Source: an uncultured bacterium (GTDB lineage: Bacteria > Chloroflexota > UBA5177 > JANWHV01). Taken from it: 64,000 nt of DNA. The stretch's first letter is position 1; each line of letters begins with the position of its first letter. The position numbers and the translations under genes were made by a program. Positions 29,380 through 50,734 of this stretch are shown in pieces. Below the pieces are notes generated by a model that did no database searches, had not been told where the DNA came from, and saw only the letters and a list, made by a program, of their open reading frames with translations. The stretch is from the NCBI GenBank assembly GCA_963827235.1, contig CAWHAE010000008.1:160001-224000 (forward strand). Direction: 5' to 3'.

Positions 29380-30193
29380 TCATGTCATCCGATCGGCAAG
29401 CTCAGCCCCGCCGATGCGCTCGCACAGTCGTTCCAGCTCCTCGCGCGAATTGTATTCAAGCACGATCTTGCCGGCGTCCACCGTACCGGCAATAGAGATC
29501 GGGGCGCCGAGCGTCCACCGCAGTGCGTCTTCAAGTGGGCGAAGATCGTGCGATTCGCTGCGCCCGGCTCGGGGCTTCCTGGAAGCGAGCATCCGCCTCG
29601 TCAGCGACTCCGTCTGGCGTACGGATAGCGAGTGCAGAAGAACGTGCTGCAACGCGGCGTCCTGCAACTCGCCCGATAGTGCCAGCAGTGCCCGCGCGTG
29701 CCCCTCAGTGAGCCTGTTTGACGCCAGGGCCTGCTGCGCGGCGTAGCCGAGGCCGAGCAGCCGCAACGTATTCGTGATGCTGACCCTGCTCTTACCCAAC
29801 CGGTTGGCGAGGTCATCCTGTGTGCAGCCCGTGGATCTGATGATCGCTTGATAGGCGTGCGCCAGCTCGAGCGGCTGGAGGTCGGCCCGATGGAGGTTTT
29901 CTACCAGCGAGATGGCCTGATTGACCTGCTCATCGTCTCCGATTAGCAGGGCCGGCACGGAGGCGAGATTCGCCAGTGCGGCTGCCCGCCAGCGCCGCTC
30001 GCCCGCCACGATGTAGTAGAGAGGCGCGTGTCTCACGGCCGTAGCAGCGGGTGACGAGCAACGGCTGCAGGACGCCGTAAATGGCGATCGAAGCGGCGAG
30101 CGCAGCCAACGACTCCTCGTCGAATCGCCTCCGAGGCTGGTCCGGCGCGGGCATCAGTTCGCTGAGTGCCAGCTCGAGCAGGCGACGCGTCAA
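29380..30193 (-). CDS. ParB/Spo0J family protein, frameshift near 30040
   Basis: QPRRRFDEESL..SI..GVLQPLLV, then IVAGERRWRAA, ENLHRADL, HTH, GHARALL. Confidence 0.85.
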
Positions 30194-31567: not shown

Positions 31568-32441
31568 TCACAAAATACCGGCCAGCGCCTTCTGTGGTGA
31601 GACCATGAGCCGACCGAGCTTCAGATCACCTGCGTCGAGGCCGCAGGCAAGTCCGACGAGCTGCGAGAGATGGAGCACCGGCATCCGTACCGCGCTCTTC
31701 TGCAGCTTCGTCGCTCTGGGTTGGTAGGCGTCGAGCGAGGTGTGGCAGAGCGGGCAAGGAGTAACCATGATGTCCGCTTCCGCTGCTTCCGCCTCTTCCA
31801 GCCGCTTCACCGCCATTTTCGTCGACGTATCCTCGTTCACCGTCAGAATATGGAAACCGCAGCAGCGCGTCTTCCCAGCGTAGTCGACGGGCGTGCCGCC
31901 CAGCGCGCGGATCAGATTGTCAAATGATGTGGGGTTGTCAGGGTCCTCGTATCCAGTGTCTTCGATTGGCCGCAGAAGCTGGCAGCCGTAGTACGAGGCG
32001 ATGCGCAGCCCGGTGAGCGGGCGCACAACCTTCTTGACTCAGCCGCTCGAGCCCGTAGTCTCCGACCAGCACCCAGAGCAGGTTCTTGACCTGGACGTTG
32101 CCGCTGTAGTGGAGACCGCTCTGGGCAAGCACGTCGTTGACACGACTGAGGAGATCAGGGTCGTCGCGGAGCGCGCGCCGATCCTGGCCAAGGTTCTGCT
32201 GGCACGTGCTGCAGATGTTGACGATGTCCATGCCTGCCGCCTCTGCCATGGCAAAGGTGCGTGCATTGAGCGCGATCTGCAGCTCCGGGTTCTCGTCCCG
32301 GATCACCCCGGCGCCGCAGCAGGTGGCGTCGGTCATCTCCCACAGGTCGATACCCAGCACCTTGGCCAGCTTCACAGTGGAGTAATGGAGCTCGGGGCAG
32401 GTACCCTTCGCCACGCAGCCTGTGAAATATGCGTACTTCAT
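31568..32441 (-). CDS. HdrB/SdhE-like CCG-domain subunit, frameshift near 32037
   Basis: YFTGC..CCGAG..ICSTC, then YYGC..CCGF..PCPLC (two CCG domains). Confidence 0.85.
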
Positions 32442-33406
32442 GGACTACTCTTCCCTTCGTGCCAACGGCATCGAAAATGCGGCGCACTTCGTTTCGGATT
32501 GTCGACCTTCTGCAGCATGGGCAGCGGCAGCTTCCCCTTGAGGAGCATCCGCACGCCCTGCGGCGCGTTGCGGATCTGACCAGTGACGTTGGTGATCCCG
32601 GTGAGCTCCATAACCAAGCGGGTCTCGTCAAGGCGTCCGCCGCGCCCGATGCTCTTGGTGAACTCCTGACTGTGTCTGGCGCCAATGTTCTTGGTGATCC
32701 CTGCCTGAATGGACATGCGGCGCAAGTCCGCAATGGCGCTGGCGGGATCGACGTGCTTCGGGCATTCCATGCAGCTATAGGCGTGTGCACAGTCCCAAAG
32801 GCCCAGATCGACCAGCTTCTGGAGACGCTCCTTCCGCTTGCTGTCGCGTGGATCGGTAACGAAGCGATGCGCCTTGGCCAAAGCGGGCGGGCCGGCGAAA
32901 TGGCTGTCGACCTCAGTGACGCTACAGTCGGAGTAGCAGACGGCGCACAGAATACAGTTGAGATCCTTGCGCGAGGGCGACAACTGCGCCGGGCTGACTC
33001 GATACTCTGCGTTCGCGGCCGGCACCTTGGCCGGATCGGGCTGTAGCCAGGGCTCGACGTCTCGAAAGTGCTTCCAGAACGGGGCCATGTCCACGACCAG
33101 GTCCTTGATCACCTTCATGGTGCGCATAGGGGTGATGCGCAGCTCGGTGCGGCCCCGCTTAAGCTCGGCCGCGATTGGCGTCTTGCAGACGAGCTTGGTG
33201 TACCCGTTCACCACCATGGCGCAGGATCCGCAGATTGAGTGCCGGCAAGCCCGCCGATACGCCAGCGAGTCATCGTGGTGGTCCTTGATCGTGTTCAGCC
33301 CGTCCAGGATCGTGGCTTCATCCCACAGGTCCAGCTCGTACCGCTCGAAGTGGGGCGCATCGTCTTTTCCGGGAACATACCGCTGGATCAGGAAAGTCGA
33401 CTTCAT
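32438..33406 (-). CDS. sdhB: Succinate dehydrogenase/fumarate reductase Fe-S subunit
   Basis: CRHSICGSC, CILCAVCYSDC, CAHAYSCMECP. Confidence 0.9.
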   Translation of the reverse strand: MKSTFLIQRYVPGKDDAPHFERYELDLWDEATILDGLNTIKDHHDDSLAYRRACRHSICGSCAMVVNGYTKLVCKTPIAAELKRGRTELRITPMRTMKVIKDLVVDMAPFWKHFRDVEPWLQPDPAKVPAANAEYRVSPAQLSPSRKDLNCILCAVCYSDCSVTEVDSHFAGPPALAKAHRFVTDPRDSKRKERLQKLVDLGLWDCAHAYSCMECPKHVDPASAIADLRRMSIQAGITKNIGARHSQEFTKSIGRGGRLDETRLVMELTGITNVTGQIRNAPQGVRMLLKGKLPLPMLQKVDNPKRSAPHFRCRWHEGKSSP

Positions 33407-35088
33407 TAGTACACCCTCTCCATTGGCTGGAACTTGCCCATGGTGACCGGCGCGTAGCTGATTTGCGGCCCTTCGGGCGAGTAGGTTGCGACCGTATGCT
33501 TGAGCCAGTTCGCGTCGTCGCGATCCTTGTAGTCGGTCCTCGCGTGGGCGCCGCTGCTTTCGGTGCGCGCCAGAGCCCCGGCAGCAATGACCTCGGCAAG
33601 GTCGAGCATCGCTCCCAGCTCCAGCGCTTCGCAGAGTGCGGTATTAAGACCAGCGACGTGTCGGCGATGGTCACTGAGGCGTACCGGTCGCGCAAAGTGC
33701 GGATCTTCCTCAGCCCCTCTGCCATCTGGTCTTGGTACCTGAAGATATGGAAGTGCTCATTCATGGTAGCCTGCATGGCGTCTCGTAGGTCAGCTACCTT
33801 CTCGGTGCCTTGTCCGCTGAAGAGCTCGTCGCGACGCTCCTCCTGCACTCGCACGGCGTCGTCCGGGAAGCTCGAGTAGTCGTGTTCTTTCGCGTGCTTG
33901 GCGGCGCTCGCGCCCGGCGATCTTGCCGAACACCACCGTCTCCAGCAGCGAGTTGCCTCCCAGGCGGTTCGCGCCGTGCACGCTGACGGCCGCGCACTCT
34001 CCCGCGGCGAAGAGGCCCTGTACCGAGGAAGCACAGCGCGTGTCGACGCGAATGCCTCCCATGGTATAGTGAGCGCCCGGGCGGATAGGCACGGGCCCAT
34101 CGACCGGATCGACGCCGGCGAAGTCGGTTGCCAGCTCGCGAATCTGCGGTAGTCGCTCCTGGATTCTGGCCTCGCCAAGGTGTCTCAGGTCGAGAAGAAC
34201 ACAGCCGTTCACGCCGCGGCCTTCCAGTATCTCAGTCCACTCGGCGCGAGACACGACGTCGCGGCTGGCCAGCTCACCCTTCGAGGGAGCGTACTTGAAC
34301 ATGAATCGCTCGCCGTCGGCGTTGAGCAGGTACGCGCCTTCTCCACGCGCGCCTTCTGTGATCAGCACGCCGTTCGCCGCCAGGGTAGTCGGATGGAACT
34401 GTATGAATTCCATGTCCTCTACGGGAACTCCGGCCCTGTAGGCGATTGCTACGCCGTCGCCTGTGCTGATCAGCGAGTTCGTGCTCTTGAAGAACACACG
34501 TCCCGCCCCCCCGGCCGCGAACACGACGGACTTGGCTCGAAAAGCGATGAGCTTACCCGTGGTGATATCCAGGGCCACCACTCCCTTGCACACTCCGTCT
34601 TCCACGATCAGCGAGGTGACGAAGAACTCCTCGTAGACTGTCGCACCGTTCTTGAGCACCTGCTCGTACACGGTCTGGAGAATGACGTGTCCGGTAATGT
34701 CGGCAACAAAGCAGGTTCGTGGGAATCCGGCGCCGCCGAACGGCCGCGTTGCGATGCGCCCGTCCTGCCACCGGCTGAACAGGACACCTTGATGCTCGAG
34801 CTCGTAGATACTCTCGGGCGCGAGACGAGTGAGTATCTCCGCGGCATCCTGATCGGCCAGGTAGTCACTACCCTTCACCGTGTCAAACCAATGGTTCTCC
34901 CAGTTGTCGTCTTTGGCGACGGCCGCATTGATACCGCCTTGAGCGGCGCCTGAGTGGCTGCGCATCGGGTGGACCTTCGAGAGGACTGCCGTGTCCGCCC
35001 CGGCTTCGCGAGCGGCAACCGCGGCACGCATGCCTGCCAAACCGGCGCCGACCACGAGAACCTCATGTTGGATCACAGTGTCGCCCAT
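33406..35088 (-). CDS. sdhA: Succinate dehydrogenase flavoprotein, compensating frameshifts near 33914 and 33647
   Basis: GAGLAG, RSHSGAAQGG, QFHPT, HYTMGG, HGANRLGGNSL, ESSGAHAR. ATG at 35088 with AGGAGG. Confidence 0.92.
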
Positions 35089-35614
35089 GTCGTGGCTGAC
35101 CTCCTGGCTGCAAATGACGCCGTCCTGGCGTCCGATACACATGTCGGTACCACAGTCCAGCCTGGCACGCGCGCCGGATGTGGATCGCGGTGGGTCTGCT
35201 TTGGTGTAGGCTCTTGGCGTCCCGGCGTCAAGTGCGCGTTCGCGGCCGCGCTTCCCTTGGACGCTTCGCCTCTATTTCAGTGTAGGCCGCCGCTGGAAAC
35301 CGCGCTGGTGCGACACAGCAGCGGTCCGTGCGAATTGCGCGACAGAGTGCTTCGGCCCGGCAATCCTGGGTGCCGCGGACGCCTCCGCACGTGCAGGGCA
35401 TAGCCTGCATGGTTCTGAGATAACACACAGCAGCGTTTGAGCGTAGGCGTGTTCCCAGACACGCGTTGCCCGCGCATCCGCTCACCGGTGATGCAAGCCG
35501 GCGCTTGGATGGGCGGGCAGCGATCTGACTCCACGCTCGCGGCAAGCCTATCCCACGGGCTGCTGCCGCTGCGGTAGCCCGGGCACGGTCGTCGAGAGTG
35601 CCCGGGGCGTGATC

Positions 35615-36952
35615 CTACTCATATCGAAGTGCTTGAATCGGGTCCAGGGCCGCCGCTCGGCTGGCGGGATAGCTGCCAAAGAAAAGACCGATGGCCAGCG
35701 AGACTCCAAAGGCAAGAGCCACGGAGTTCGAGCTGATCACCGGTGTCGCGCTGCCGAAGAATCCGGACAGAACTTTCACATCCGAGAGAAGCCACGCGAC
35801 CAGGAAGCTCATGCCGACGCCGATGGCACCACCCGTCGCACTGATCATTATCGACTCGGTCAGAAACTGCATGAGGATATCGATCTTGCGGGCCCCGACG
35901 GCCTTGCGAAGCCCGATCTCGCGGGTTCGCTCCGTCACGGTGACCAACATGATGTTCATGATCCCTATGCCCGCGACCAGGAGTGCACAGGCGGAGACAC
36001 CGGCCAACAGGGTCGTCAGCGTACCGGAGACACTGGAGGCCGTCTGCTGCACAGTCGTCTGGCTAAAGAACGAGAAGTCGTCGGACGCCGAGTACGTCAA
36101 GCGATGCAGGCTCCGCAGCATGCTCTCGACCTCCGCCTCGGCCAGATTGGTGGTACTCTGTTTCGTCGCCTCGATGTTGATCGACGAGAGCGATCCGGTG
36201 CTGCCCGAGGAGTGCGGCAAGATGGTCTGAGCCGTGGTCAGCGGGACGTACACCACGTTGTCCTGGTTGACGCCGCCGCTTCCGCCCTTGGACGCCATTA
36301 CACCCACGATCTCGAAGGTTATGCCGTTGAGTTGCACCGACGAACCCACGGTAGCGGAAGCAGACTCGTTGGGAAACAACGTGCTCAACAGCGTGGCGCC
36401 GATGCATACCACCTGGGATCGACTCACGAGATCGCTGCTGGTAACGAACCGGCCAATGGCAACCTGGGCGTTGCGAACGGTCTCGTACTCAGGCGTAACG
36501 CCGTCGACGGACGTGTACGTGTTTTCGCTGCCTGCCACGATCTGAGCGTTCGTGTCGAACTCGGGGGCAACCAATGCCACGTCCGGCAGGCTGCCCGAGG
36601 AGCCGGCGTTGTCGGCCAACGTCTGCGCATCCGACAGCTTCAGCGTACTCGACGATCCCATGGCGCCGCGGACACCTCCTGAGAACGTAGAGCCGGCCTG
36701 CACCTCCACGAGATTTGTGCCAAGCGAGCTGAGCTGAGAGTTAACCTGGCTCGCCGAGCCGTTGCCGATGCCGACGGCTACGATGACCGAGGCCACGCCG
36801 ATGATCATGCCCAATAGCGTAAGGGCCGTGCGCGCCTTGTTCGTGAGAATCCCCGTCACGGCGACGTTCATCGTCGTGAGGACCTGTGCTAGCACCGCGA
36901 TGGGAGGACGTCCGGACGCCTGCTCTGCCGGATGTAAGGCTTGTGTTGCCAT
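35615..36952 (-). CDS. MacB/YknZ-type ABC permease without fused ATPase
   Basis: LTLLGMIIGVASVI, GIGIMNIMLVTVTERTREIGLRKAVGA, YPASRAAALDPIQALRYE. Confidence 0.93.
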   Translation of the reverse strand: MATQALHPAEQASGRPPIAVLAQVLTTMNVAVTGILTNKARTALTLLGMIIGVASVIVAVGIGNGSASQVNSQLSSLGTNLVEVQAGSTFSGGVRGAMGSSSTLKLSDAQTLADNAGSSGSLPDVALVAPEFDTNAQIVAGSENTYTSVDGVTPEYETVRNAQVAIGRFVTSSDLVSRSQVVCIGATLLSTLFPNESASATVGSSVQLNGITFEIVGVMASKGGSGGVNQDNVVYVPLTTAQTILPHSSGSTGSLSSINIEATKQSTTNLAEAEVESMLRSLHRLTYSASDDFSFFSQTTVQQTASSVSGTLTTLLAGVSACALLVAGIGIMNIMLVTVTERTREIGLRKAVGARKIDILMQFLTESIMISATGGAIGVGMSFLVAWLLSDVKVLSGFFGSATPVISSNSVALAFGVSLAIGLFFGSYPASRAAALDPIQALRYE

Positions 36953-36953
36953 G

Positions 36954-39900
36954 TTATCTACCCGGTCCTCCGCCCATACCGCCCATGCCACCCATGCCCC
37001 CCATACCGCCAATGCCGCCTGAGCTGCTCGACGCACTGGTGGTGCCGGAGGTCGTGGGCACGATGATCCTCTCGTTTTCCTGCAGACCGCTCAGGACCTG
37101 CGTGTAGCTCGTGTCGCTTGTGCCCGTCTGGACCTGCACTTGCGATATCTGGTTCGTGGCGCTCAGAGTTTCCACGAAGCTGCCCGCCGCGTTGGTAGTG
37201 ACGGCCTGCGTGGGTACTTCCAGCACATTGCTGACCTGGGCGGTGACTATCGTCAGATCGGCGGTCATGCCCGCTGTTATGCCCTTCGTGCTGCCGGATA
37301 GCTTGATCTTCACGGGATAGGTCGTCACATTGGATGAGGTGGTCGCCGCGTAGGGTATGCTGCTGACCAGGCCGACGTACGTCGTGGATGGATAGGCGCT
37401 GAAAACCAGTGCTACCGGGTCGCCGATCTGGATACTGGCTATCTCGGCTTCGGGGATGTCAGCTGTCACGTCTATGCCCTGCGTGGTCAGCATCGTGATC
37501 GCCGCGGTGCTGGAGCCGGCGGCCTCGCCATTCACGATGCTGACGGACTCGACCGTACCGTCGCTGGGCGCGTAGATCTTCGTTTCGCTCTCGGCCAGAG
37601 CCTGATCGACCTTCAGCGTCTGCTTCGCCTGGGCGAGACTTGCCTTCAGGATGGCAAGCTCGGTTGCCGTGTAGGGATGGATGACCAGGTCGAGCGCAGC
37701 CTGTGCGCTCTTGACTGCCTCCTCCTGCTGCGCGATATCGTTGGAGGAATTCGGCTGCTTCGCCAGGTCGAGAGCGATCTGAGCGTTGACCACGGAGTCC
37801 TGCGCCTGCTGGATATCGGTCGTGCTTCCGGGGTGCTCGGCGAGAGCCAACGCCTGCTCTTCGGCTACCACGTTGTCACGGGCCTGCTGGATGTCGGTTG
37901 TACTGTTAGGCTGCTTTGCAGCTGCAAGAGCGGACTCAGCGCTGGCAACGGTCAGCTTCTGTTGGGCGATGTCGACCGCCGAGTTCGGCTGCTTTGCCGC
38001 GACCAGCGCAGCCTGAGCGCTCGATACTGCATCCTCTGCCTGGCGAATATCCTGAGCGGAGTATGGTTGCTTCGTTGAAGTCAGTGCTGCCTGCGCGCTC
38101 TTGACCGCCGCCTCCTGCGAGACGATGTCGGTCGCGGAATTGGGTTGCTCGACGGCGACTAGTGCGGCTTTCGCGCTCTGTACTGCCGCTTCCTCCGACG
38201 CGATGTCGGCGGCTGAGTTGGGCTGCTCGGCAGCTGCCAGGGCCGCTTTCGCGCTCTGTACTGCCGCTTCCTCCGACGCGATGTCGGCGGCTGAGTTGGG
38301 CTGCTCGGCAGCTGCCAGGGCCGCTTTCGCGCTCTGTACTGCCGCTTCCTGCGACGCGATGTCGGCAGCGGAGTTGGGTTGCTCGGCCGCGGCCAGACTC
38401 TCCTGGGCGCTCTTGACCGAGTCTGCCTGCGAAGCGATATCGGTCTGCGAGTTGGGCTGTTCCGCCGCCGCGAGCACGGTATTGGCGTTGTTGACCGTGA
38501 CTTCCTGCGAGGCAATCTGAGCCGCCGTGTATGGATGCTCGGCAGCAGTAAGTGCCTCCTGTGCGCTCGTGACCGCCGCCTCCTGGGAGGCGATATCGGT
38601 TGCGGAGTTGGGCTGCTTGGCCGCGACAAGCGCGGCCTCGGCGCTTCGAACGGCGATCTCCTGGGAGGCAATGTCGGATGCCGAGTTTGGCTGTATTGCC
38701 GCGGCCAGCGCCACCTGGGCGCTCTTCACGGTTGCCTCCTGTGAGGCAATGTCCTGCGTTGTATAGGGGTGCTCGGCCGAGTACAGGGATGCCTCAGCCG
38801 TCGCGATGGCATCTTTTGCGGAGGCCAGGTCCGTGGCACTGGCGGGCGCGGTAGCTGTGGTGAGCGCCGCTTCGGCCGATTTCACCGAGTCCTCGGCGGA
38901 TGCGAGAATCGGTTGAGCTAGCCGGCGCCAGCGCCGCGTCTAGCGACGCCTGGGCCGAGATGATGGAATCCTGTGCGGACGCAAGATCCGTGGCAGTGGC
39001 CGAGCCACTCTGAGCCGTGTCGAGCGAGTTCTGAGCCTGAATCACGGCGTCCTGGGCCTTGGCCAGGTCGGTGGAAGTCGGCGAGGGCGACTGGTCCGCG
39101 TTCAGCTTCGCTTGCGCGGCAGCGACCTGCTGCTGAGCGAGAGTTACGGCATTCGCTTCGGGACTATTCAGAGCGGCGAGGGCAGCGGTGGCGCTTGCCA
39201 CACTGGCGTTGTCGTTGGCGATGTTGGCCTCATCGGTGGCCAGATTCTCAAGGTAGGTCGCTTCTTCGCTCGATAGGGTGGTGGAGCTGGTGGTGCTGGA
39301 AGCCACGGGCGCCGTAAGCAGCGAGAGCGCTACCTGGTCTGTCTGCAGCTTGTTCTGAGCGGATAGCAATGTGGCCTTGGCTTGGGCGACAGATGACGCA
39401 GTCGGGTTGGACAGGCTATTGAGTGAGTTCTGAGCCGACGTTAGGCTGGCCTGGTCGGAGTCCAGGGTGGCCGCCGTCGCCGGTGAGTAGAGAGCGGCCA
39501 GGCTCTGCTTTGCGCTGTCGAGGCTTGCCTTTGCCGAGGCGATCGTGGCAGCACTGGAAGGTGCTTGCAAGGCAATCAGCTTCTGTTTGGCGGAGTCAAG
39601 GCTGGCCCGTAGCTGTGCAAGCGTCGTCGCCGATGGAGCCGCCTTGAGGGCGATGAGCTTCTGCTTGGCGGAGTCGAGGCTGGTCTCGGCCTGCGCCACG
39701 GTCTGGGCGCTTGGTGGCGCCTGCAGGGCCTTGAGCTTTTGAATCGCCGAGTCCAGACTGGCCTTCGCCGCGACGAGCGTATTTGCATCCGGAGGCGACT
39801 GCATTTCGTTGAGCTTGATCTGGGCCTGCTGCATTGTGGCCTTGGCCTGAGCGATGGAGCTTGCCGTGCCACCCGTCTTCATAGCAGCGAGCTTAATCTG

Positions 39901-41247
39901 GGCCTGCTCGAGAGAGGCTTTGGCCTGAGCAATGCTGCTCGGCGTGCCGCCGGCCTTCATGGCTGCCAGCTTGATCTGGGCTTGCTTGAGTGTGATCTGG
40001 GCCTGCGCTATGCTCGTGGCAGTTCCGCCTGCCCTCATCGAGGCCAGCGTGATCTCGGCCTGCTGCAATGTGGCCTTAGCCTGAGCGATGCTGGAAGCGG
40101 TGCCGCCGGCCTTCATGGCAGCCAGCTTCAGCTCTGCCTGCTCGAGGCTCAGCTTGGCCTGGGCGATGCTGGAAGCGGTGCCGCCGGCCTTCATGGCAGC
40201 CAGCTTCAGCTCTGCCTGCTCGAGGCTCAGCTTGGCCTGGGCGATGCTGGAAGCGGTGCCGCCGGCCTTCATGGCAGCCAGCTTCAGCTCTGCCTGCTCG
40301 AGGCTCAGCTTGGCCTGGGCGATGCTGGAAGCGGTGCCGCCGGCCTTCATGGCAGCCAGCTTCAGCTCTGCCTGCTCGAGGCTCAGCTTGGCCTGGGTGA
40401 TGCTGGAGGCCGTGCCGCCCTTCTTCATGGCAGCCAGCTTCAGCTGAGCCTGCAGAAGCGAGGCTTTCGCCTGGGCGACGCTCGCGGCCGTGCCGCCTGC
40501 TTTTTCGGTCGCAAGCTTTGACTTGGCCTCGTCGAGAGCTTGCTGCGCCTGCGCAATGCTGGCCGCGGTCCCACCGGCCTCCATCGAAGCGAGCTTGGCC
40601 TGCGCGGCGGCAAGCGTGTTGGCGGCCTGGGCAATCGACGACGCGGTGCCGCCCTGCTCGAGCGCTGCCAGTTTCTGCTGTGCGGTATCGAGATTCAGCT
40701 GGGCCGTCTCGATGGAGGAAGCGGTGCCGTTTTGCAAAGCGGCCAGCTTCGATTTCGCCGAGTCGAGGCTGGCCACCGCTTCGGCGATGCTCGCCGCGGT
40801 CCCGCCCGCCTTCAACGCAGCAAGCTTGAGCTGTGCCTGCCGCAAGCTTGACTGCGCCTGCGTCAGCGAGTCAGGGTTGACGGGTGCGAGCTCCTTGTCC
40901 AGGTTGAGCTGGGCAGTGGTGACGGCATTCTGGTCACTCATCAGTGACAGCGAGAGCGACTGATCGCTGAGCGTAGCCAGTACCTGGTTCTTCTTCACCT
41001 TCTGCCCGGCGGTCGCGAGCACGCTTGCCACGGTGCCCGACGCCCCGAAAGTGAGCGAGTAAGAGGTGACATCCTCTGATGTTCCCGAGGGCGTTATGGA
41101 GGACGTGATCGTGCCGCGGGAGACCAGCATGACCCGTCCATCGATGCGCTGTGGCGTGCTGATTCCCGGTAGCGAGAAAGCGGCGGTCACACTGCCGCTG
41201 GTGACGAGAGCCGCGAGAAGAGCGAATCGAGCCGTGGTTCCTTTCAT
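36954..41247 (-). CDS. Giant MacA/YknX-type adaptor (membrane fusion protein), ~1430 aa, frameshift near 38907
   Basis: N-terminal anchor, lipoyl half SGTVASVLATAGQKVKKNQVLATL, ~40 26-aa helical repeats, second half IYAPSDGTV, beta-barrel (IPEAEIASIQIG, AGMTA), VPTQAV..TGTSD..LSGL. Removing one base joins the two ORFs. Confidence 0.88.
38167..38400. repeat. 78-bp tandem repeat x3 (descending arm QPNSAADIASEEAAVQSAKAALAAAE)
   Basis: Copies start at 38167, 38245 and 38323. Confidence 0.9.
40085..40396. repeat. 78-bp tandem repeat x4 (ascending arm AGGTASSIAQAKLSLEQAELKLAAMK)
   Basis: Copies start at 40085, 40163, 40241 and 40319, with a degenerate copy from 40397. Confidence 0.92.
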
Positions 41248-41504: not shown

Positions 41505-41580
41505 ATAGTAATAAGGGCGCGTAAGATGGCCCTAAGCGGTGGCTAAGAAATCCCTGAGCATTGACCAAGAGTTTGCCAAG
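41505..41580 (-). promoter_or_regulatory. 11-bp-periodic CTTAG-like repeat array plus TACTAT -10, upstream of the adaptor-permease operon
   Basis: Pentamers at 41576, 41565, 41554, 41543, 41532, 41521 read CTTGG, CTTGG, CTCAG, CTTAG, CTTAG, CTTAC on the minus strand. TACTAT at 41510-41505. Confidence 0.7.
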
Positions 41581-41706: not shown

Positions 41707-42903
41707 CTAGTCCGTACTGGTCAGGTAGCCGCTGGAGGTGCTGGAGCTCGTTGCGGATTGCAAAGCTGCGAGCAGAGCCTTCAGAAGGTCCTGGCTGGAC
41801 GAGCTGGACGAACTGGACGAGCTGGTGGAACTCGCCGCATTGGTGGCGCTGGCAGCATCGGACTGCGTGGAACTACTGTCGCTCGCGCCGGTACCGGCCG
41901 GCGGCGGAGGCGGCGGCAGGTTGCCGTTGCCGGCAACGCTGGAAAGAGCGGCCGCGAGCTCCTTGAGGAGGTCGTCTCCGGTCGTGGTCGAGGACGAGGA
42001 CGTGCTCGAGTCGGACGAGCTGGATGACGAGCTCGTGCCGCTCGCGGCGGTCTCGAGCGCAGTGGCCAGCTCCTTGAGCAGACTCTGGCTCTGATCAGTG
42101 CTGCTGCTCGTCGTGCTGGAGTCGGTTGTACTGGTCGACGAGCTGGTGCCGCTCGCCGACGTGGACGTGCTGTCCGAAGATGTGGCCGACTCCAGGGCGG
42201 AAGCGAGTGCGCTCAGCAGCTTCTGACCCCGTTCCACGCTCGCCGAATCAGACGACGAGCCGGAGCTCGTGTCGCCGGTCGCGTTTTCCAGCGCTGCGGC
42301 GAGGTCCTTCAGCATGCCACCGCCGGGAGGCGGCGGCGGGGCGCCGGTCTGCGCAGTCACTGCGGTAGAGCTGCCGCTACTGCTCGTGCTGTCGGTACCG
42401 GAGTCGCCGGTGATGCTCTGCAGGGCGCTGGCAAGGGCCTTTAGCAGATCCTGGCCCGTGAGCGTCGAAGACGAGCTGGATGTGGCGTCAGTACTGGTGG
42501 TGGCGTCGGCGCTGGTCGTGCCATCACTGCTCGTCGTCGAGCTGGTGCCGGCGGTAGAATCGCTGCTCTGACCGATCGCCGACTGCAACGCCTGGGACAA
42601 CGCCTGCAAGAGGTCCTGCCCCTGGAATCCCTGGCCGGACTGGTAGCCGGGCGGCGGCCCATAGGTGTTGCCGTCGTAGGTGATGCCGTTCGTGCTGCTA
42701 GTGGAACCCGACGTGGATGACGTATCGTACGAGCTTTCCAGGTTCTGCAGGGCGTCGTCGGACAGCTCGAGACTGTAGCTTGACTCGCTGGAGGAAGTAG
42801 TGGAGCTGGAGCCAGTTGCCTGGCTGAGGGCTTGTTCGAGAAGCTTTTCGAGACGGCTCGATTCACTGGACGATCCGGTACCGCCGATCGACGAGATACT
42901 CAT
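41707..42903 (-). CDS. Leaderless Ser/Thr-rich protein with seven amphipathic helix repeats and poly-Pro motifs
   Basis: ATG at 42903 after AAGGAG. (G)QDLLxALAxAL(Q/E)SA repeats separated by S/T linkers. Confidence 0.75.
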   Translation of the reverse strand: MSISSIGGTGSSSESSRLEKLLEQALSQATGSSSTTSSSESSYSLELSDDALQNLESSYDTSSTSGSTSSTNGITYDGNTYGPPPGYQSGQGFQGQDLLQALSQALQSAIGQSSDSTAGTSSTTSSDGTTSADATTSTDATSSSSSTLTGQDLLKALASALQSITGDSGTDSTSSSGSSTAVTAQTGAPPPPPGGGMLKDLAAALENATGDTSSGSSSDSASVERGQKLLSALASALESATSSDSTSTSASGTSSSTSTTDSSTTSSSTDQSQSLLKELATALETAASGTSSSSSSSDSSTSSSSTTTGDDLLKELAAALSSVAGNGNLPPPPPPAGTGASDSSSTQSDAASATNAASSTSSSSSSSSSSQDLLKALLAALQSATSSSTSSGYLTSTD

Positions 42904-43026
42904 TCGGCTCACTCCTTTTCGGCTCGGCTCGTGTCAGATGCGATATATACTTCAGGTCGACCTCTGCATCTAGTGTCGTCACGAATACCCGCATTTTCAG
43001 AGCGATAAAGGGCCGAAATTGAGGTT

Positions 43027-43064
43027 CTTGGCAAACTCTTAGCAAGTTCTTAGCGAAACCTTAG
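43027..43064 (+). promoter_or_regulatory. 11-bp-periodic CTTAG array
   Basis: CTTGG 43027, CTTAG 43038, 43049, 43060. Confidence 0.7.
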
Positions 43065-43489: not shown

Positions 43490-46400
43490 ATGGACGCCAA
43501 TCTTCGTCATTGCACGGCTCATCGCGTTGCCCGTCGTGTCCGTGGGTGGCCGCCAGTCATCGTGGCAGTGCTGGTTGCCAGTATCGTGATCGTTCCCTCG
43601 TGGAACGCAGGGCTCATTCAGGCGGCCTCTAGCAGCCAATCATCTGCCGTACTGCGTGCATCGAATGCAGCCGGCGGCGACACAGTGGCCCGATCGCGTG
43701 TTCTCGACGACGTCACCGCGACCACCGTGCCGACATCCACGTTCGTCCCCACGTCGACCACTGGTCCGACCACCGTCCCGACGTCCACATCCGTCCCCAC
43801 GTCGACCGCTGCCCCGACCACCGTCCCGACGTCCACGTCCGTTCCCACCTCGACGCCGGTGCCTTCGTCCACGTCGACCCACACGGTCGTGCCGACCTCC
43901 ACCGATACTGCGATCCCAACCTCGTCTGATACCGCGACGCAGACTTTCACGGCGACGTCGACGAACACCGCGATAGCCACGGCCACGTCGACGGTCGGAG
44001 GCCTGACACTGAGTCCGTCGTCGGGCGCCAGCGGCGCCAGCGTCTACATCTATGGGAGCGGGTTTTCGTCAAGCGAGGAAGTTTCCATCTATGTCGCCGG
44101 GACATATGACACGTATGTGTACGCCAGCAGCGGCGCGGTGAGCACATACATCTCGTTCCCCTCGACTACAATTACAGGTTACGTGGTCGTCGAGCTGCTC
44201 GGGGCCTCGAGCGGGCACGAGGACACCGGGGAATTCGATGTCACAAGCACCTCGAGTACCACACTCACGTTGTCTCCGACCTCCGGCTCAGCCGGTACCA
44301 CGGTGACGGCCTACGGTAGCGGATTCACGGCAGGGGAGACCGTCGAGGTCATGGCCAACGGCTCGGAGGTGGAAACCACGGCGACCTCGAGCAGCTCAGT
44401 CACCGTCTCCTTCACCTTTCCTTCGACCTCGAGCACCGGCTATAAGACGGTTGAGCTGTACGGACTCACCAGCGGGCATGTCGCCACTGCCTCCTTCTAT
44501 GTCTCCAGCACGTCGAGCACCACGCTCACGCTGTCGCCGACCTACGGAACCACCGGCAGTACCGTCACGGCGTACGGCACCGGATTTACGTACGGCGAGC
44601 TGGTCGAGCTGATGGCCAACGGCTCGTACGTCACAGAACAGACGGCCACGAGTACTGCGGTCACCATATCGTTCAGCTATCCCTCGACATCCAGCACGGG
44701 TTACCAGACAGTTGAAATGTACGGCCTCAGCAGCGGGCACACGGCTACCGCGTCGTTCGACGTGACAAGCACGTCGAGCAGCACGCTCACCTTGTCGCCT
44801 ACCTCGGGAAGTGCCGGCACGACGGTGACCGCCTACGGCACAGGGTTCACCTACGGCGAGTCGATCGAGCTGATGGCGAACGGCACGGAGGTAGAGGAAG
44901 TCACGGCGAGCAGCACTGCCGTCACCGTCTCGTTCAGCTACCCCTCGACGTCCAGCACTGGCTATCAAACGGTGGAGCTCTACGGTCTGAGCAGTGGGCA
45001 CACGGCGAGTGGTTCCTTCTACGTCTCGAGCACCTCGAGCAGCACGCTCACCCTGTCACCCACTTCCGGGACCACTGGTACCACAGTCACCGCCTATGGC
45101 ACCGGATTCACCTATGGCGAGTCGGTCGAGGTGCTGGCGAACGGCACCGAGATAGAGGTCGTGACGGCTACAAGCACGGCTGTGACGATCTCCTTCAGCT
45201 ACCCCTCTACGTCCGCCACGGGATATCAGACAGTAGAGCTCTACGGCCTGTCCAGCGGGCATACGGCGTCGGCCTCGTTCTACGTCACCGCTACGTCGAC
45301 CTCGAGCTTCACGTTGAGCCCGACCAGTGGCAAGCCGGGAGCGACGGTGTCGGCGACCGGCTATGAAACCACGTTCAGTCTTTATGGCGCTCAGACCGTC
45401 ACGATCAGCTTCGGCGGCACACAGGTCGCCACCGTGACGCCCGGCACCGCGGGCTACTTCAGCGTGTCCTTCACGGTCCCGAGCGGATTCAGCGGTACGG
45501 TGACGGTCACGGCCACCGCCGCGGCCTACGGCTATTCTGCCTCCCAGACCTTCTCGGTCGTCAAGCCAACGCTGACACTTGGTAGCAGCTCTGCGGTGCC
45601 CGGTACCCTGGTCTCGCTCAGTGGTACTGGATACACGCCGGGCGAGACTGTGACGATCACTCTGCCCGGGGGCGGCACCACCACTGCCACTGCCGGTAGC
45701 TCGGGCGCGCTGAGCACCTCGGTGACCATCCCGGCCGGTCTGTCCGCGGGTAGCGCCACGATCAGCGCGATAGGATCGAGCAGCCAGATCACGGTGAGCG
45801 CCACGCTGACCATAACCGGCGCCAGCCTGAGCGCAAGACCGGCCAGCGTCTCTGCAGGGAGCCAGGTCACGTTCAGCGGGAGCGGTTTTGCTCCCGGCGA
45901 AGTGGTGCAGCTCAGCGATTCGACAGGCGATAGCCAGAGCGTGGTGGCCGACAACCAGGGCGGCATGAGCGTAACGATTACGGTTCCTGCCACCCAGGTC
46001 ACGGGGTCGGCCGCGTTCACGGCACGAGGCCTGACGAGCAAATCGTCGGCATCGGCCACGGTCTTCGTGGCTGCGGTTGCCGTTCGTGCTGCTACCCCGA
46101 CCAGCACGCCGAGGCCGACCGTGCAGGTCTCGCCTACGGTGGCTGCTCCGAGCGCAAACACCGGTAGCTCCACCTGGTACTTCGCGGCCGGTCGCACGGA
46201 CAAGGGCTACAGCGAGCAGGTCGACGTGCTCAATCCCAATCATAGCTTGGTTCGCGGCACCATCACCCTGTACTACGGGAGCGGGAAGAGTACTTCCACC
46301 TCATTCAGCCTGGGAGCACTGGAACGCGGGACGTACGATGTGGGCAGCATTGTCGGCATGCAGCGCGGCATTGCAATTGTGATCAAAGCCGGCATGCCGG

Positions 46401-47419
46401 TGGCAGCGACGGTCACCGGCGAGCACGGCACAACCAACAAGACCGTGCTGAGCGGTGTCTCGGCGACGGCAGACAAGTGGTACTTTGCCGACGGCTATAC
46501 CACCAAGGCGTTCGTGGAAACCCTGGACGTGTTCAACCCAGGATCCACCTCCGCGTCCGTGCGGGTGACGTGGCCTCGGACCGGCGGCAAGTCCGTGCAG
46601 ACGACATTCACAGTGGCAGCGCATAGCGTGCGGTCGGTGTCCGTAAACAAGTATGTGCCAGGCACGTCGCATGCCATGATCGTGAGCTCCAATCACGCTG
46701 TGGTCGTGGCTCGCGAGACGGTATTCGGGTCCAAGAGCCAGGGGACTATGGTTACTCAGGGTACGTCACGTGCCGCGACCAAGCTCTACCTGGCCGAGGG
46801 CTCCACGACCGGTGGTGTCCAGGAATCGGTGACCGTGCTTGACCCCGGCAGCAAGAGCGCGCATGTTACGCTGACGTTCTATGCAAGTAGCGGCAAGTCC
46901 ATCGCCAAGCGCACGCTGACGGTCGGCAGCGTGCAGCGGCAGAGCATCGACGTCAACAGCATCACGAACTCGGCCTCGGTGGCGGCCGTTGTCAGCAGTG
47001 ACGTGCCGGTAGTGGCCGAGCGAATCATCTTCACCGGCAGCCCCAACGGAAGCTCCGCTGGCGGCACAGACGTGCTGGCGAGTGCGATCGCTGCCAGCGG
47101 CTGGGCCTTCGCCTCCGGTGACACGAGCGCCGGCAACAAGGAGTTCATCACTCTGCTCAACCCGGTGGGCAAGGCCGCGACGATCGTGGCCACCTGGTAC
47201 TCGAGCAGTGGCGAGCTCGTTCAGAGGCAGTTCACCCTGCCGGCCAACGCACGGATCACGATTGACGTCTCGCGCTCGGCGGGCACACTGCCGGCCGGAA
47301 GTCATGCCACGGTCCTGCGATCGCTGGCCGGTTCGCCGTTCGTCGTCGAACAGTCGCTCTATGATGGCGCGATGAAGCAGTGCGGCACGACGTCGGGCAC
47401 GTCGCTCGTCGGATCGTAA
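43490..47419 (+). CDS. Large secreted surface protein: Thr-rich linker, eight Ig/IPT-like repeats, four YFAxG-type (DUF5719-like) repeats
   Basis: Signal/TM segment, VPTST repeats, LTLSPTSGxxGTTVTAYGTGF modules, WYFAAGRT/WYFADGYT/LYLAEGST/WAFASGDT. Confidence 0.82.
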   Translation: MDANLRHCTAHRVARRVRGWPPVIVAVLVASIVIVPSWNAGLIQAASSSQSSAVLRASNAAGGDTVARSRVLDDVTATTVPTSTFVPTSTTGPTTVPTSTSVPTSTAAPTTVPTSTSVPTSTPVPSSTSTHTVVPTSTDTAIPTSSDTATQTFTATSTNTAIATATSTVGGLTLSPSSGASGASVYIYGSGFSSSEEVSIYVAGTYDTYVYASSGAVSTYISFPSTTITGYVVVELLGASSGHEDTGEFDVTSTSSTTLTLSPTSGSAGTTVTAYGSGFTAGETVEVMANGSEVETTATSSSSVTVSFTFPSTSSTGYKTVELYGLTSGHVATASFYVSSTSSTTLTLSPTYGTTGSTVTAYGTGFTYGELVELMANGSYVTEQTATSTAVTISFSYPSTSSTGYQTVEMYGLSSGHTATASFDVTSTSSSTLTLSPTSGSAGTTVTAYGTGFTYGESIELMANGTEVEEVTASSTAVTVSFSYPSTSSTGYQTVELYGLSSGHTASGSFYVSSTSSSTLTLSPTSGTTGTTVTAYGTGFTYGESVEVLANGTEIEVVTATSTAVTISFSYPSTSATGYQTVELYGLSSGHTASASFYVTATSTSSFTLSPTSGKPGATVSATGYETTFSLYGAQTVTISFGGTQVATVTPGTAGYFSVSFTVPSGFSGTVTVTATAAAYGYSASQTFSVVKPTLTLGSSSAVPGTLVSLSGTGYTPGETVTITLPGGGTTTATAGSSGALSTSVTIPAGLSAGSATISAIGSSSQITVSATLTITGASLSARPASVSAGSQVTFSGSGFAPGEVVQLSDSTGDSQSVVADNQGGMSVTITVPATQVTGSAAFTARGLTSKSSASATVFVAAVAVRAATPTSTPRPTVQVSPTVAAPSANTGSSTWYFAAGRTDKGYSEQVDVLNPNHSLVRGTITLYYGSGKSTSTSFSLGALERGTYDVGSIVGMQRGIAIVIKAGMPVAATVTGEHGTTNKTVLSGVSATADKWYFADGYTTKAFVETLDVFNPGSTSASVRVTWPRTGGKSVQTTFTVAAHSVRSVSVNKYVPGTSHAMIVSSNHAVVVARETVFGSKSQGTMVTQGTSRAATKLYLAEGSTTGGVQESVTVLDPGSKSAHVTLTFYASSGKSIAKRTLTVGSVQRQSIDVNSITNSASVAAVVSSDVPVVAERIIFTGSPNGSSAGGTDVLASAIAASGWAFASGDTSAGNKEFITLLNPVGKAATIVATWYSSSGELVQRQFTLPANARITIDVSRSAGTLPAGSHATVLRSLAGSPFVVEQSLYDGAMKQCGTTSGTSLVGS

Positions 47420-47599: not shown

Positions 47600-47637
47600 C
47601 TTGGCGAGCTCTCAGAGTACTCTTAGGCTCTTCTTAC
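47600..47637 (+). promoter_or_regulatory. 11-bp-periodic CTTAG-like array upstream of the GT-C gene
   Basis: CTTGG 47600, CTCAG 47611, CTTAG 47622, CTTAC 47633. Confidence 0.7.
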
Positions 47638-47785: not shown

Positions 47786-50734
47786 ATGGCCATTCGTGAA
47801 ATGCAAGCCCTGAGGGTGCGTGAACGCTCGCGCGCCGTCGACTACGCCGGCGCCCGGGTGATCATGGTGCCATGGCATCGGTTGGCGCTCGGGAGCATCC
47901 TCCTGCTCGCTGTGGTACTCAACTCGTGGGACCTGTCACGCCTCGGCTACGGAAATTCGTATTACGCGGCTGCCGTGCGCAGCATGATGCAGAGCTGGCA
48001 CAACTTCTTCTTCAACTCGTTTGATCCAGGAGGCTTCGTCACCATCGACAAGCCACCGCTGGGATTCTGGTTCCAGGTTGTGAGCGCCAAGCTGTTCGGC
48101 TTCAACGGAATCAGCCTGCTCCTGCCGTCGCTGGTGGCCGGCATTCTCTCAGTGTGGCTGCTCTATGTTCTGGTCGGTCGCGTGTTCGGTCGCGGTGCCG
48201 GGCTGCTCTCCGCGCTGGTCATGGCAGTCACTCCGGTGGCAATCGCTACCAACCGCAGCAACATCATCGACAGCATTCTGGTGCTATTTCTGATTCTGGC
48301 CGCGTGGGCCTTGAGCGTGGCAGCCGCGCGCGGCAGCCTGCGCTGGCTCCTCCTGTGTGCGATGCTTGTCGGGCTGGCCTTCAACGTCAAGATGCTCGAA
48401 GCCTACCTGGCAGTGCCCGCATTCGCAGTCGTCTACCTGCTTGGGGCATCGACCGCCTGGTGGAAGCGCATCATCCACATGCTGATAGCCGCGGTGGTGA
48501 TGCTGGTAGTCTCCCTGTCGTGGGCCTTGGCCGTGGACTTGACCCCAGCCAGCCAGCGGCCATGGGTTGACTCGACCAGCACCAACTCCGAGATCGATCT
48601 GGCGACGGGTTACAACGGTCTGCAGCGACTCACCGGTCAAGGCGGCCCGGGCGGAGGCGGCCCGGGCGGAGGCGGCGCGGGCGGAGGCGGCGCGCCCGGT
48701 CGGGCCGGCGGACGCCAACCCGCTGGTGGCGCCACGGGAAGTAGCAGCAAGACAGGCACGCCGCAGAGTCTCTCGACCATAGGCGGTAACACCGCCGGCA
48801 CGACAAATCAATCCAGTGTCCCGGCACGGCCTGCCGCCGGGTCCCAGCCCGCTACTGGGACCCAGCTTGGTGCCGGGGCACAGCTTGCTCCCGGGATGCA
48901 GACGGCATCAGGTTCCCAGCCTGGTGCGGGGGCCCAACCTGCCGCAGGCTCCCAGCCTGCATTGGGGTCCCAAACTGCTTCGGGATCCCTACCTGCTGCG
49001 GGATCCCAGGCCGCCACCGGGGCTCAGCTTGGGGCCGGGATGCAGCCTGCGACCGGGTCGCAGACTGCACCTGGCTCCCAGACTGGTGTGGCAACGCAGT
49101 TCTCTGCTGGCTCACAACCGGGTACCGGGATCGCCGGCTCGGGCGCACCGGTTACCGGAGCGACCGGTAGCTCGACCAGCGGCAGCGGCTTTCCGGGAAA
49201 CGCGAACGGCAACGGTGGTGGCCCTGGCGGCAACGCTGGTGGCCCTGGCGGCAACGGTGGTGGCCCTGGCGGCGGCGGTGGTGGCCCTGGCGGCGGCGGA
49301 CCAGGTGGCGGCGGCATGTTCGGCACCGGCAATCCAGGGTGGTTCCGCCTGTTCGGCCAGGACTTGGGCGGCCAGGCGAGCTGGCTACTGCCACTAGCCG
49401 CAATCGGATTTCTCGTGGTAGTAGCGAGCCGGCGCTTTCGTCCAACCCTCGATAGAGAGCAACAGACCGCCCTGCTGTGGGGTATATGGCTTCTCACTAC
49501 GGCGGTGTTCTTTAGCGTGGCAGGCTTCTTCCACCAGTACTATCTTGTTACCATGGCGGCACCCATAGCCGCGCTCTCCGGAATCGGCGTGAGCGTCCTC
49601 TGGCAGCAGTACTGCGCGCGCCGCTGGCTTGGCTTGCTGCTCCCGATCGCTTTGCCGATCACGGCTGCGGTCCAGGTGTCGTTGTTGCAGCCCTATCCAT
49701 CGTGGAGTAGCTGGCTGGAGCCGCTGATATATGGGATGACCGGCATCGGCACAGTGATGCTGATACTGGCCCGACTGCTGCGCCTGCATTTCGCTGGTGC
49801 CTTGGCACCCGCCGCCCTCGGCATTGCTCTAGCCTCTGTGCTGGTAGCACCGGCGGCTTGGGCGGCCAACACGGCGACGAGTGGCGGCGGTGGCGGAACG
49901 CCGAGCGCCGGTCCTTCCGCGTCCCAGGGCGGTCCCGGCGGCGGAGGCAGCGGGTCCTTCGGCGGCAACATTGAGCGCGGCGAGTCCAGCGCCGCTTCAC
50001 AGGCGGAGCATGCACAGCCCCTCGAACGTGGCCAAGCGCCCACGAGTGGTCAGATGTCGAAGGACGGGCCGGCTCCTACGAGCGGCCAGGCGCCCAGGAG
50101 CGGCCGTACCTCCACGGGCCTAGGACCGTCGGAGAGCAGTCCTGGTTCCGGCGGTGGCTCCGGAAACGCCGGTGGTGCGGGTGGTGACAATCTGCTGCAA
50201 TACTTGCTGAAGCACCAGGGCAAGACGAAGTTCCTGGTTGCGGTGGGAGACTCCAACAGCGCGGCATCCTACATTATCCAGACAGGCAAGCCGGTGATGT
50301 CCATGGGTGGCTTCACGGGCAGCGACCCGATTCTGACATTGGATCGCCTGAAGACGCTGATCAAGACCAACGCCGTGCGGTTCTTCCAGGGAGTAGGCGG
50401 TCGCGGCTCCGGCGGCGACGTCTCGAGCTGGGTGCAGAGCACGTGCAAGGCCGTCACGGTCGGTGCCAACGGCACCGCCACCGTCACCTCTCCGTCCGCG
50501 AACAGCTCGGCGACCAAGACCGGTTCGTCAGGGTCCGGCGGACAAGCAGGAAGCGCCGTACCCGGAGGATCGAGGAGCACGCTCGTGACCGACTCGAGTT
50601 CCACACACACGACGCTTGGCACAAGCTCAAACGGGCAAGGTTTTGCCGGCGGCCCACAGGGTGGCGGCGGCGGATTCGGTGGCATGGGAGGTAACAATCA
50701 GCAGCTCTACGACTGCGCGGGCGCGGTGAAGTAA
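47786..50734 (+). CDS. YkcB/ArnT-like (PMT_2) GT-C glycosyltransferase with Gly-rich insertions
   Basis: GNSYYAAAVRSM..WHNFFF.SFDP.GF.TIDKPP, AFNVKML, GYNGLQRL, FHQYY, PVMSMGGFTGSDP. Confidence 0.88.
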   Translation: MAIREMQALRVRERSRAVDYAGARVIMVPWHRLALGSILLLAVVLNSWDLSRLGYGNSYYAAAVRSMMQSWHNFFFNSFDPGGFVTIDKPPLGFWFQVVSAKLFGFNGISLLLPSLVAGILSVWLLYVLVGRVFGRGAGLLSALVMAVTPVAIATNRSNIIDSILVLFLILAAWALSVAAARGSLRWLLLCAMLVGLAFNVKMLEAYLAVPAFAVVYLLGASTAWWKRIIHMLIAAVVMLVVSLSWALAVDLTPASQRPWVDSTSTNSEIDLATGYNGLQRLTGQGGPGGGGPGGGGAGGGGAPGRAGGRQPAGGATGSSSKTGTPQSLSTIGGNTAGTTNQSSVPARPAAGSQPATGTQLGAGAQLAPGMQTASGSQPGAGAQPAAGSQPALGSQTASGSLPAAGSQAATGAQLGAGMQPATGSQTAPGSQTGVATQFSAGSQPGTGIAGSGAPVTGATGSSTSGSGFPGNANGNGGGPGGNAGGPGGNGGGPGGGGGGPGGGGPGGGGMFGTGNPGWFRLFGQDLGGQASWLLPLAAIGFLVVVASRRFRPTLDREQQTALLWGIWLLTTAVFFSVAGFFHQYYLVTMAAPIAALSGIGVSVLWQQYCARRWLGLLLPIALPITAAVQVSLLQPYPSWSSWLEPLIYGMTGIGTVMLILARLLRLHFAGALAPAALGIALASVLVAPAAWAANTATSGGGGGTPSAGPSASQGGPGGGGSGSFGGNIERGESSAASQAEHAQPLERGQAPTSGQMSKDGPAPTSGQAPRSGRTSTGLGPSESSPGSGGGSGNAGGAGGDNLLQYLLKHQGKTKFLVAVGDSNSAASYIIQTGKPVMSMGGFTGSDPILTLDRLKTLIKTNAVRFFQGVGGRGSGGDVSSWVQSTCKAVTVGANGTATVTSPSANSSATKTGSSGSGGQAGSAVPGGSRSTLVTDSSSTHTTLGTSSNGQGFAGGPQGGGGGFGGMGGNNQQLYDCAGAVK
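48833..49120 (+). repeat. 16 hexapeptide (18-bp) repeats xxGxQx inside the GT-C
   Basis: AAGSQP ATGTQL GAGAQL APGMQT ... SAGSQP, exactly 288 bp. Confidence 0.8.

Follow-up and report, generated by a model that had tools for sequence, protein, structure and literature searches.

A gene for a periplasmic adaptor (membrane fusion protein) lies at positions 41247-36954, on the minus strand, of a 64,000-nucleotide stretch of DNA from an uncultured Chloroflexota bacterium (GenBank assembly GCA_963827235.1, contig CAWHAE010000008.1, positions 160,001 to 224,000), which is referred to here as the window. Judged by its sequence, the encoded protein, of about 1430 aa, belongs with the MacA/YknX-like adaptors of MacB-type ABC exporters, and 1129 of its residues form an α-hairpin built of tandem repeats. 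The gene is read in two open reading frames (ORFs) that result from one frameshift. The 5' ORF (38794..41247, minus strand) contains an N-terminal hydrophobic stretch, the first halves of the β domains, the ascending arm of the hairpin, its tip and descending units 1-4, and leaves frame after about 38908. The 3' part of the gene (36954..38906, minus strand) continues in another frame with descending units 4-20, the second lipoyl half, the β-barrel, the membrane-proximal domain and a Gly-rich tail. The adaptor abuts a MacB/YknZ-type ABC permease directly downstream (35615..36952, minus strand; Pfam MacB_PCD, E 9e-43; FtsX, E 1e-19), with no ATPase gene between them at the junction (36952-36954).

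In agreement with a lipoyl domain split around a helical hairpin, the family model TIGR01730 (RND_mfp) matches both ORFs, with 37.9 bits for the first (positions 3-133, E 1e-9) and 83.1 bits for the second (E 2e-23). The split of the gene keeps both scores under the cut-off of 94.9, which the intact orthologue L001 exceeds with 98.2. Pfam places the β-barrel and membrane-proximal domains on the 3' ORF (HlyD_D23, E 6e-11; HlyD_3), and the moderately hydrophobic stretch visible at residues 8-25 is a candidate N-terminal membrane anchor. The one-base frameshift falls inside descending unit 4 (38907..38910, minus strand). It is probably a sequencing or assembly indel, the simplest explanation since clpC, parB, an hdrB/sdhE-like gene and sdhA are also split across frames in the window (10982-13484, 29380-30193, 31568-32441, 33318-35142). 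In the orthologues L001 and L003 the adaptor gene is intact.

When both ORFs are split at the linkers, each arm is found to have 20 units, nearly all of 26 aa; the units start at 40884..39408 in the ascending arm and at 39165..37679 in the descending arm. The ascending arm (39331..40962, minus strand) consists of a base helix (unit 0) followed by the 20 linker-helix units, with linkers of the Gly-Gly-Thr type in units 2-14 and of the Pro/Ser type in units 15-19. The tip (39166..39330, minus strand) is a Ser/Thr-rich loop with the first descending helix (unit 0). In the descending arm (37577..39165, minus strand), units 2-5 form one subfamily, mirroring ascending units 18-15, and units 6-20 carry Gln/His-Pro linkers.

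An initial annotation of this DNA had pointed to near-identical units at ascending positions 7-10 and descending positions 11-13 of the 20, and comparison of the unit DNA confirms it. In the ascending expansion (40085..40445, minus strand), units 8, 9 and 10 are identical at 78/78 positions and unit 7 at 75/78. A perfect run at a lag of 78 (40397-40085, 313 bp) corresponds to four perfect copies of a 78-bp segment with zero substitutions. The descending expansion (38148..38381, minus strand) is 86-95% identical (74/78 for units 11 and 12, 71/78 for 12 and 13, 67/78 for 11 and 13), with a perfect run of 184 bp (38350-38167) and differences at synonymous sites. Elsewhere the units are clearly diverged (16/20 ascending, 17/20 descending). 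The statement that the two repeat families differ in sequence and lie 1.7 kb apart also holds, ascending units 7-10 sharing about 14-28 of 78 DNA positions with descending units 2-20. Because the arms are unrelated in sequence and separated by this distance, one event cannot have duplicated both.

Measured from the base of the hairpin, descending units 11-13 (residues 184-262) are nested within the ascending block (residues 173-293). Overlap of the blocks alone has a chance of about 11%, and the whole similarity matrices have therefore been compared. The two 20x20 unit-similarity matrices are mirrored, with a distance-corrected r of 0.67 when ascending unit k is paired with descending unit j at k+j=20 and of 0.59 at k+j=21. 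The k+j=20 mirror is the best of 40 shifts and reversals, and none of 2000 permutations reaches 0.67. Simulations of independently evolving arms, with and without hot-spot feedback, were run 300 times in each of seven settings, and r of at least 0.67 appears in 0-7 of these runs per setting. The older subfamily boundary between ascending units 14 and 15 faces that between descending units 5 and 6. The earlier proposal that the near-identical blocks stand exactly opposite each other, counted from the base (k+j=21), needs to be adjusted: the count is right for the linkers and the spans are nested, but the helices fit k+j=20, helix k facing helix 20-k, a shift of one unit. Parallel arms are rejected: the best parallel r is 0.42 in the window, and parallel order is found in 0/21 homologues that mix unit types.

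This mirrored organization is statistically solid and extends across the family. The 264 candidate proteins (186 protein hits and 78 locus ORFs), of which 225 have both hairpin boundaries, are mostly Chloroflexota where named, as are the closest named relatives (P0001, at 58% identity, and two loci in Chloroflexia metagenome-assembled genomes). The 116 homologues with at least four linkers contain 457 ascending linkers, and 396 of them have a counterpart at the mirrored position (offset +5, tolerance 2 residues), compared with 0-4 of 457 at control offsets (-3 or less, 13 or more); 285 of 341 remain mirrored once the first linker is excluded. In the 21 proteins held out of profile building, 73 of 82 linkers are mirrored and the counts are equal in 16. 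Every one of the 21 proteins that mix 26- and 33-aa units has them in mirror order. Unit similarity correlates better in the mirror than in the parallel arrangement in 19/21 proteins, a set selected for fully mirrored linkers. Two adaptors are fused in one protein or stand in tandem in P0043, L010 (1023-4201) and L016 (7490-10786).

The initial annotation expected orthologues to keep a 1:1 ratio of N-arm to C-arm units, which is borne out. L001 and L003 have 10:10 units, counted by eye, and within all four of the hand-picked orthologue pairs both arms differ by a single 33-aa unit. The further claim of the initial annotation, that separate duplication events kept the arms matched, is supported as well. 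Mapping of single units between the window and L001 or L003 is ambiguous except at the base and the tip. Near-identical neighbouring units occur in both arms of 20 of 154 hairpins, in one arm of 13 and in neither arm of 121, a comparison confounded by unit number; paired recent copies like those of the window are present in P0076, P0114 and L034. DNA repeat tracts are found in 6/76 loci, always in both arms, and the six loci are related to one another. The window hairpin is nearly twice as long as the next longest found (633 and 586 aa). In Patescibacteria loci (e.g., L005, L011 and L020), the hairpins have 197-337 aa, mostly a single basal linker pair, and are largely unsegmented.

Coevolution of mirror units, which the initial annotation had also anticipated, has been detected in a set of 155 tiers from 81 proteins. 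Between mirror helices, 17 of the top 20 couplings lie on antiparallel diagonals, which hold 42% of the cells, compared with 8 and 11 of the top 20 for same-arm neighbours. The in-register band has a z of 0.175 vs 0.017 +/- 0.032 for wrong-tier pairs, where the signal is lost. Structures have been predicted with AlphaFold for the homologues L001 (pLDDT 69.5, pTM 0.32, low confidence) and P0129, which has 4:4 units (pLDDT 89, pTM 0.56). Both models consist of 22-residue helices with 3-4-residue linkers between them. MacA is the best structural match of both (Z 16.3 and 20.5) and is aligned over 329-332 of its 340 residues; for P0129 the match has Z 20.5 over 329 residues at an rmsd of 5.4, and biotinyl-domain matches span residues 61-406 of this model. 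The P0129 hairpin also aligns with elongated F-BAR hairpins over tip-centred ranges (121-345 and 175-294; Z about 10, rmsd 7-20), which would fit an extended rod, a Z near 10 being modest for helices. The covariation and the model of the homologue thus support a predicted extended antiparallel rod. In an extended rod, with one 22-residue helix and one 4-residue linker to each unit, a rise of 0.15 nm per residue together with the linker would give about 4 nm per tier and about 80-90 nm for 21 tiers, in line with the step of about 4 nm first suggested. Among the solved structures searched, ordinary adaptors but no segmented multi-tier hairpin have been found, which is weak evidence of absence.

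The mirror structure, the 1:1 counts across the family, the covariation and the alternation of helix and linker can be brought together in one explanation. The hairpin would be a segmented antiparallel rod, each tier made of one ascending and one descending 22-residue helix, and short Pro/Gly linkers, located face to face, would join one tier to the next. The hairpin would have to rejoin the split lipoyl domain at both ends, and the facing helices would be co-adapted; a 78-bp duplication in one arm would therefore be tolerated just briefly, or solely where neighbouring units are interchangeable, until a mirror duplication restores the pairing and stabilizes it. Unequal arms would presumably carry a fitness cost. 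Identical neighbours would favour more unequal recombination at equal height on both arms, and the rod would grow in paired tiers of about 4 nm. We estimate a probability of about 0.75 for this combination of lipoyl return, co-adapted helices, mirror duplications that stabilize one-arm gains, and identical neighbours that invite further events at the same place. The comparison with MacA and Spr0693 suggests that the adaptor probably assembles as a hexameric tube; this would let cargo cross a thick outer envelope with no TolC involved, and such a conduit is plausible. Matched arms are required of any hairpin inserted into a lipoyl domain, whether or not its total length is adaptive, and the in-register duplications show structural constraint.

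Several observations weigh against this explanation. The newest gains are not 1:1 in number or age, because the ascending arm has gained three copies without substitutions and the descending arm two that have partly diverged. Unequal intermediates must then have survived, or gene conversion or polishing explains some of the identity. Simultaneous 1:1 duplication of both arms is rejected for these newest events by the same difference in number and age, and arm matching holds over time, not event by event. A first automatic count, in which the largest gap was taken as the tip (96 of 102 rows, with the window included and the double adaptor P0043 dropped), finds equal arms in just 67/96 proteins, 89 being within one unit (Spearman 0.87), and the offset exceeds 4 residues in 28/115 proteins. 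Most of the 25 asymmetric-looking proteins inspected by eye turn out to have missed linkers, five are ambiguous and L021 is a real exception. In L021 (812-3790), a 633-aa hairpin breaks the mirror rule, with linkers in the ascending arm and an almost unbroken descending helix. At the threshold used, 13 of the 33 hairpins with any near-identical pair have it in one arm only, and the covariation is drawn from just the 155 tiers. Residues 415-515 of the L001 model match designed helical-repeat bundles (Z 8.6-8.9), and some tiers may fold back locally. Finally, with no ATPase gene in the window and a frameshifted reading frame, it is not certain that the window adaptor is active.

The initial annotation went further and took the equal arms as a sign of selection for a length-tunable ruler. 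This is not supported, as equal arms are geometrically required, the tier number is labile at 91% core identity, and the newest gains are +3 and +2. A ruler is unproven because any antiparallel hairpin inserted into a lipoyl domain needs equal arms and paired lengthening of helices is already known. In an adaptive version, the tier number would be selected to match the thickness of the envelope, so that the tube would stop at one particular outer layer, an idea that is compatible with the segmented rod and would add to it. The literature offers some encouragement: a rod of 80-90 nm is on the scale of Chloroflexota outer layers (PMC7332563), and the height of Spr0693 has been compared with the inner wall zone (PMC5768738). 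In addition, L001 and L003 both keep 586-aa hairpins at 75% core identity. The mirror symmetry is nevertheless expected without selection of this kind, orthologues with 91-93% core identity differ by 66-70 residues in hairpin length, and the 40 hairpins of at least 370 aa scatter into 27 clades (a rough and unsupported FastTree tree of 222 cores); matching to the envelope is possible, with the odds against it. This lability between close relatives and the recurrence of the expansions would also suit neutral drift, in which every hairpin beyond some minimum length is functional and a recombination ratchet lets paired duplications accumulate, and it is established knowledge that identical repeats promote more duplication. 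Drift of this kind is rather unlikely, however, since every tier needs two events via an unequal intermediate, a 1430-aa and probably hexameric protein is costly, and an excess of ten tiers over the orthologues suggests a directional benefit.

There is little likelihood that consensus building during assembly or polishing created or homogenized the identical copies. At least five genes are frameshifted in the window, the 313 bp of the ascending run lack any substitution, and no relative has been found among proteins of 1127-3215 aa (weak evidence), all of which would suit an artefact. The 20:20 count, on the other hand, matches the family rule, the descending copies differ at synonymous sites, most units of both arms are clearly diverged, and the same paired recent copies recur in the three homologues mentioned above. 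The earlier argument against a simple assembly artefact thus stands for copy number, but the perfect identity of the ascending copies could come in part from consensus polishing. It is equally improbable that the paired helices zig-zag into a compact bundle, in which a tier would add about 1 nm and not 4 nm. Such an accordion fold could draw on the helical-repeat matches of part of the L001 model and on the CusB hairpin, which folds back on itself (PMC4446572), but the confident P0129 model matches elongated, tip-centred hairpins and there is little antiparallel coupling between neighbours of the same arm.

The segmented antiparallel rod can be placed next to several known systems. MacA of MacAB-TolC (PDB 5NIK, 4DK0) is the top structural match and shares the domain order of the window adaptor, which likewise has a MacB-type permease adjacent to it. 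The MacA hairpin is an unbroken 70 Å stem that docks TolC (PMC5985334), whereas the hairpin of 1129 aa is segmented and has no TolC gene nearby. MacAB-like pumps have been described in monoderms (PMC5985334, PMC5768738, PMC8277102), and a nanotube towards the wall has been proposed for their MacA-like adaptors (PMC5768738, PMC5985334). YknX of Bacillus and Spr0693 of S. pneumoniae (5XU0), like the window adaptor, have a separate permease, and they lack an outer-membrane channel, as the window system may do too; the Spr0693 barrel is 56 Å high, and the window rod is predicted to be more than 10 times longer and made of tandem repeats. Long hairpins are also found in EmrA (4TKO), HlyD and Gram-positive adaptors. 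According to a review (PMC4446572), the coiled coil of adaptors gains length when heptads are inserted into both of its helices; the same review notes "extremely large hairpin domains" in Gram-positive adaptors. EmrA is a continuous coil of 127 Å (PMC4158417), in contrast to the window family, which grows by linker-helix modules of 26 or 33 residues, and the homologue models superpose poorly on 4TKO (rmsd 25-28).

The segmented module itself is already catalogued, as the Pfam YbhG hairpin family shows. Precomputed annotations assign this family (PF25881, HH_YBHG) to many homologues, and it is also a weak lead in the Atlas (0.76), where every match to the hairpin is below 0.9. A Pfam search of the 5' ORF gives no match, and the match to PRK03598 (E 2e-15) stays far short of the cut-off for that model. 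Each arm of YbhG has a single linker of this type, and the module is repeated 20 times per arm in the window adaptor. No description of segmented, mirror-duplicated adaptor hairpins has been found in the literature searched, most subscription journals and supplements lying outside it, and the accessible part of PMC13328181 holds no information on segmented hairpins. The window adaptor is an extreme and, it appears, undescribed variant of a known adaptor family.

How monoderms use such adaptors without TolC is an open question in reviews. Envelopes of Chloroflexota, covered also by PMC13319060, have amorphous layers of 30-50 nm and, at a distance of about 72 nm, a fibrillar mesh (PMC7332563). 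We tentatively suggest, as a rather doubtful generalization, that the Chloroflexota hairpin is a modular, TolC-free secretion nanotube whose paired tiers of 4-5 nm span multilayered envelopes, here as a single-protein conduit of 80-90 nm. If so, the tier number would be a genomic readout of envelope thickness, and the window conduit, about seven times the length of EmrA, would record stepwise compensatory duplication in progress. A length that changes in countable paired modules makes the questions of monoderm adaptor use and of the Chloroflexota envelope testable. The gene is also a clean example from nature of tandem duplications that compensate each other at two distant places in one gene, and its modules could possibly serve to build protein tubes of a desired length.

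The remaining exporter components have been sought around the gene. A six-frame scan of the window finds no Walker A or ABC-signature motif. At the L001, L002 and L003 loci an ABC ATPase gene sits between adaptor and permease, and the ATPase for the window exporter may be encoded elsewhere in the genome. No outer-membrane efflux protein is matched among the window ORFs scanned, nor among the 20 neighbouring ORFs scanned at loci of Chloroflexota or Patescibacteria type, whereas a Bacteroidota control matched.

Direct repeats with an 11-bp period are located upstream of the adaptor gene (41521..41580, minus strand), and also upstream of a gene for a 1309-aa, probably secreted protein (43027-43064, plus strand) and of a mannosyltransferase-like gene (47600-47626, plus strand). 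The pattern, derived from the first two sites, gives 7 matches vs 0.03 expected, always in gene orientation. The repeats are likely a regulator-binding site shared with these two neighbouring genes, a putative assignment from the repeat pattern, and we take them to resemble an OmpR-type regulon box. Another 11-bp-period repeat has been seen by eye upstream of the L001 and L003 adaptors, and the promoter and terminator scan gave nothing above chance.

Upstream of the adaptor gene, at 41707-42912 (minus strand), lies a gene for a 401-aa Ser/Thr-rich protein with short repeated amphipathic segments and poly-Pro. It has no Pfam match, its look-alikes in the Atlas are uncharacterized Ser-rich proteins (0.92, weak), and it is a possible candidate for exporter cargo. 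The 1309-aa protein (43490-47419, plus strand) is also Ser/Thr-rich, is probably secreted and another candidate for the cargo, and has 261-bp (87-aa) repeats and a weak ASRT-like match at the C terminus; a similar protein of 1153 aa, with a TIG match, is encoded at 15150-18611. The mannosyltransferase-like gene (47786-50734, plus strand) encodes a glycosyltransferase that combines PMT_2 and YkcB_C and contains very large repeat inserts rich in Gly, Ser and Gln.

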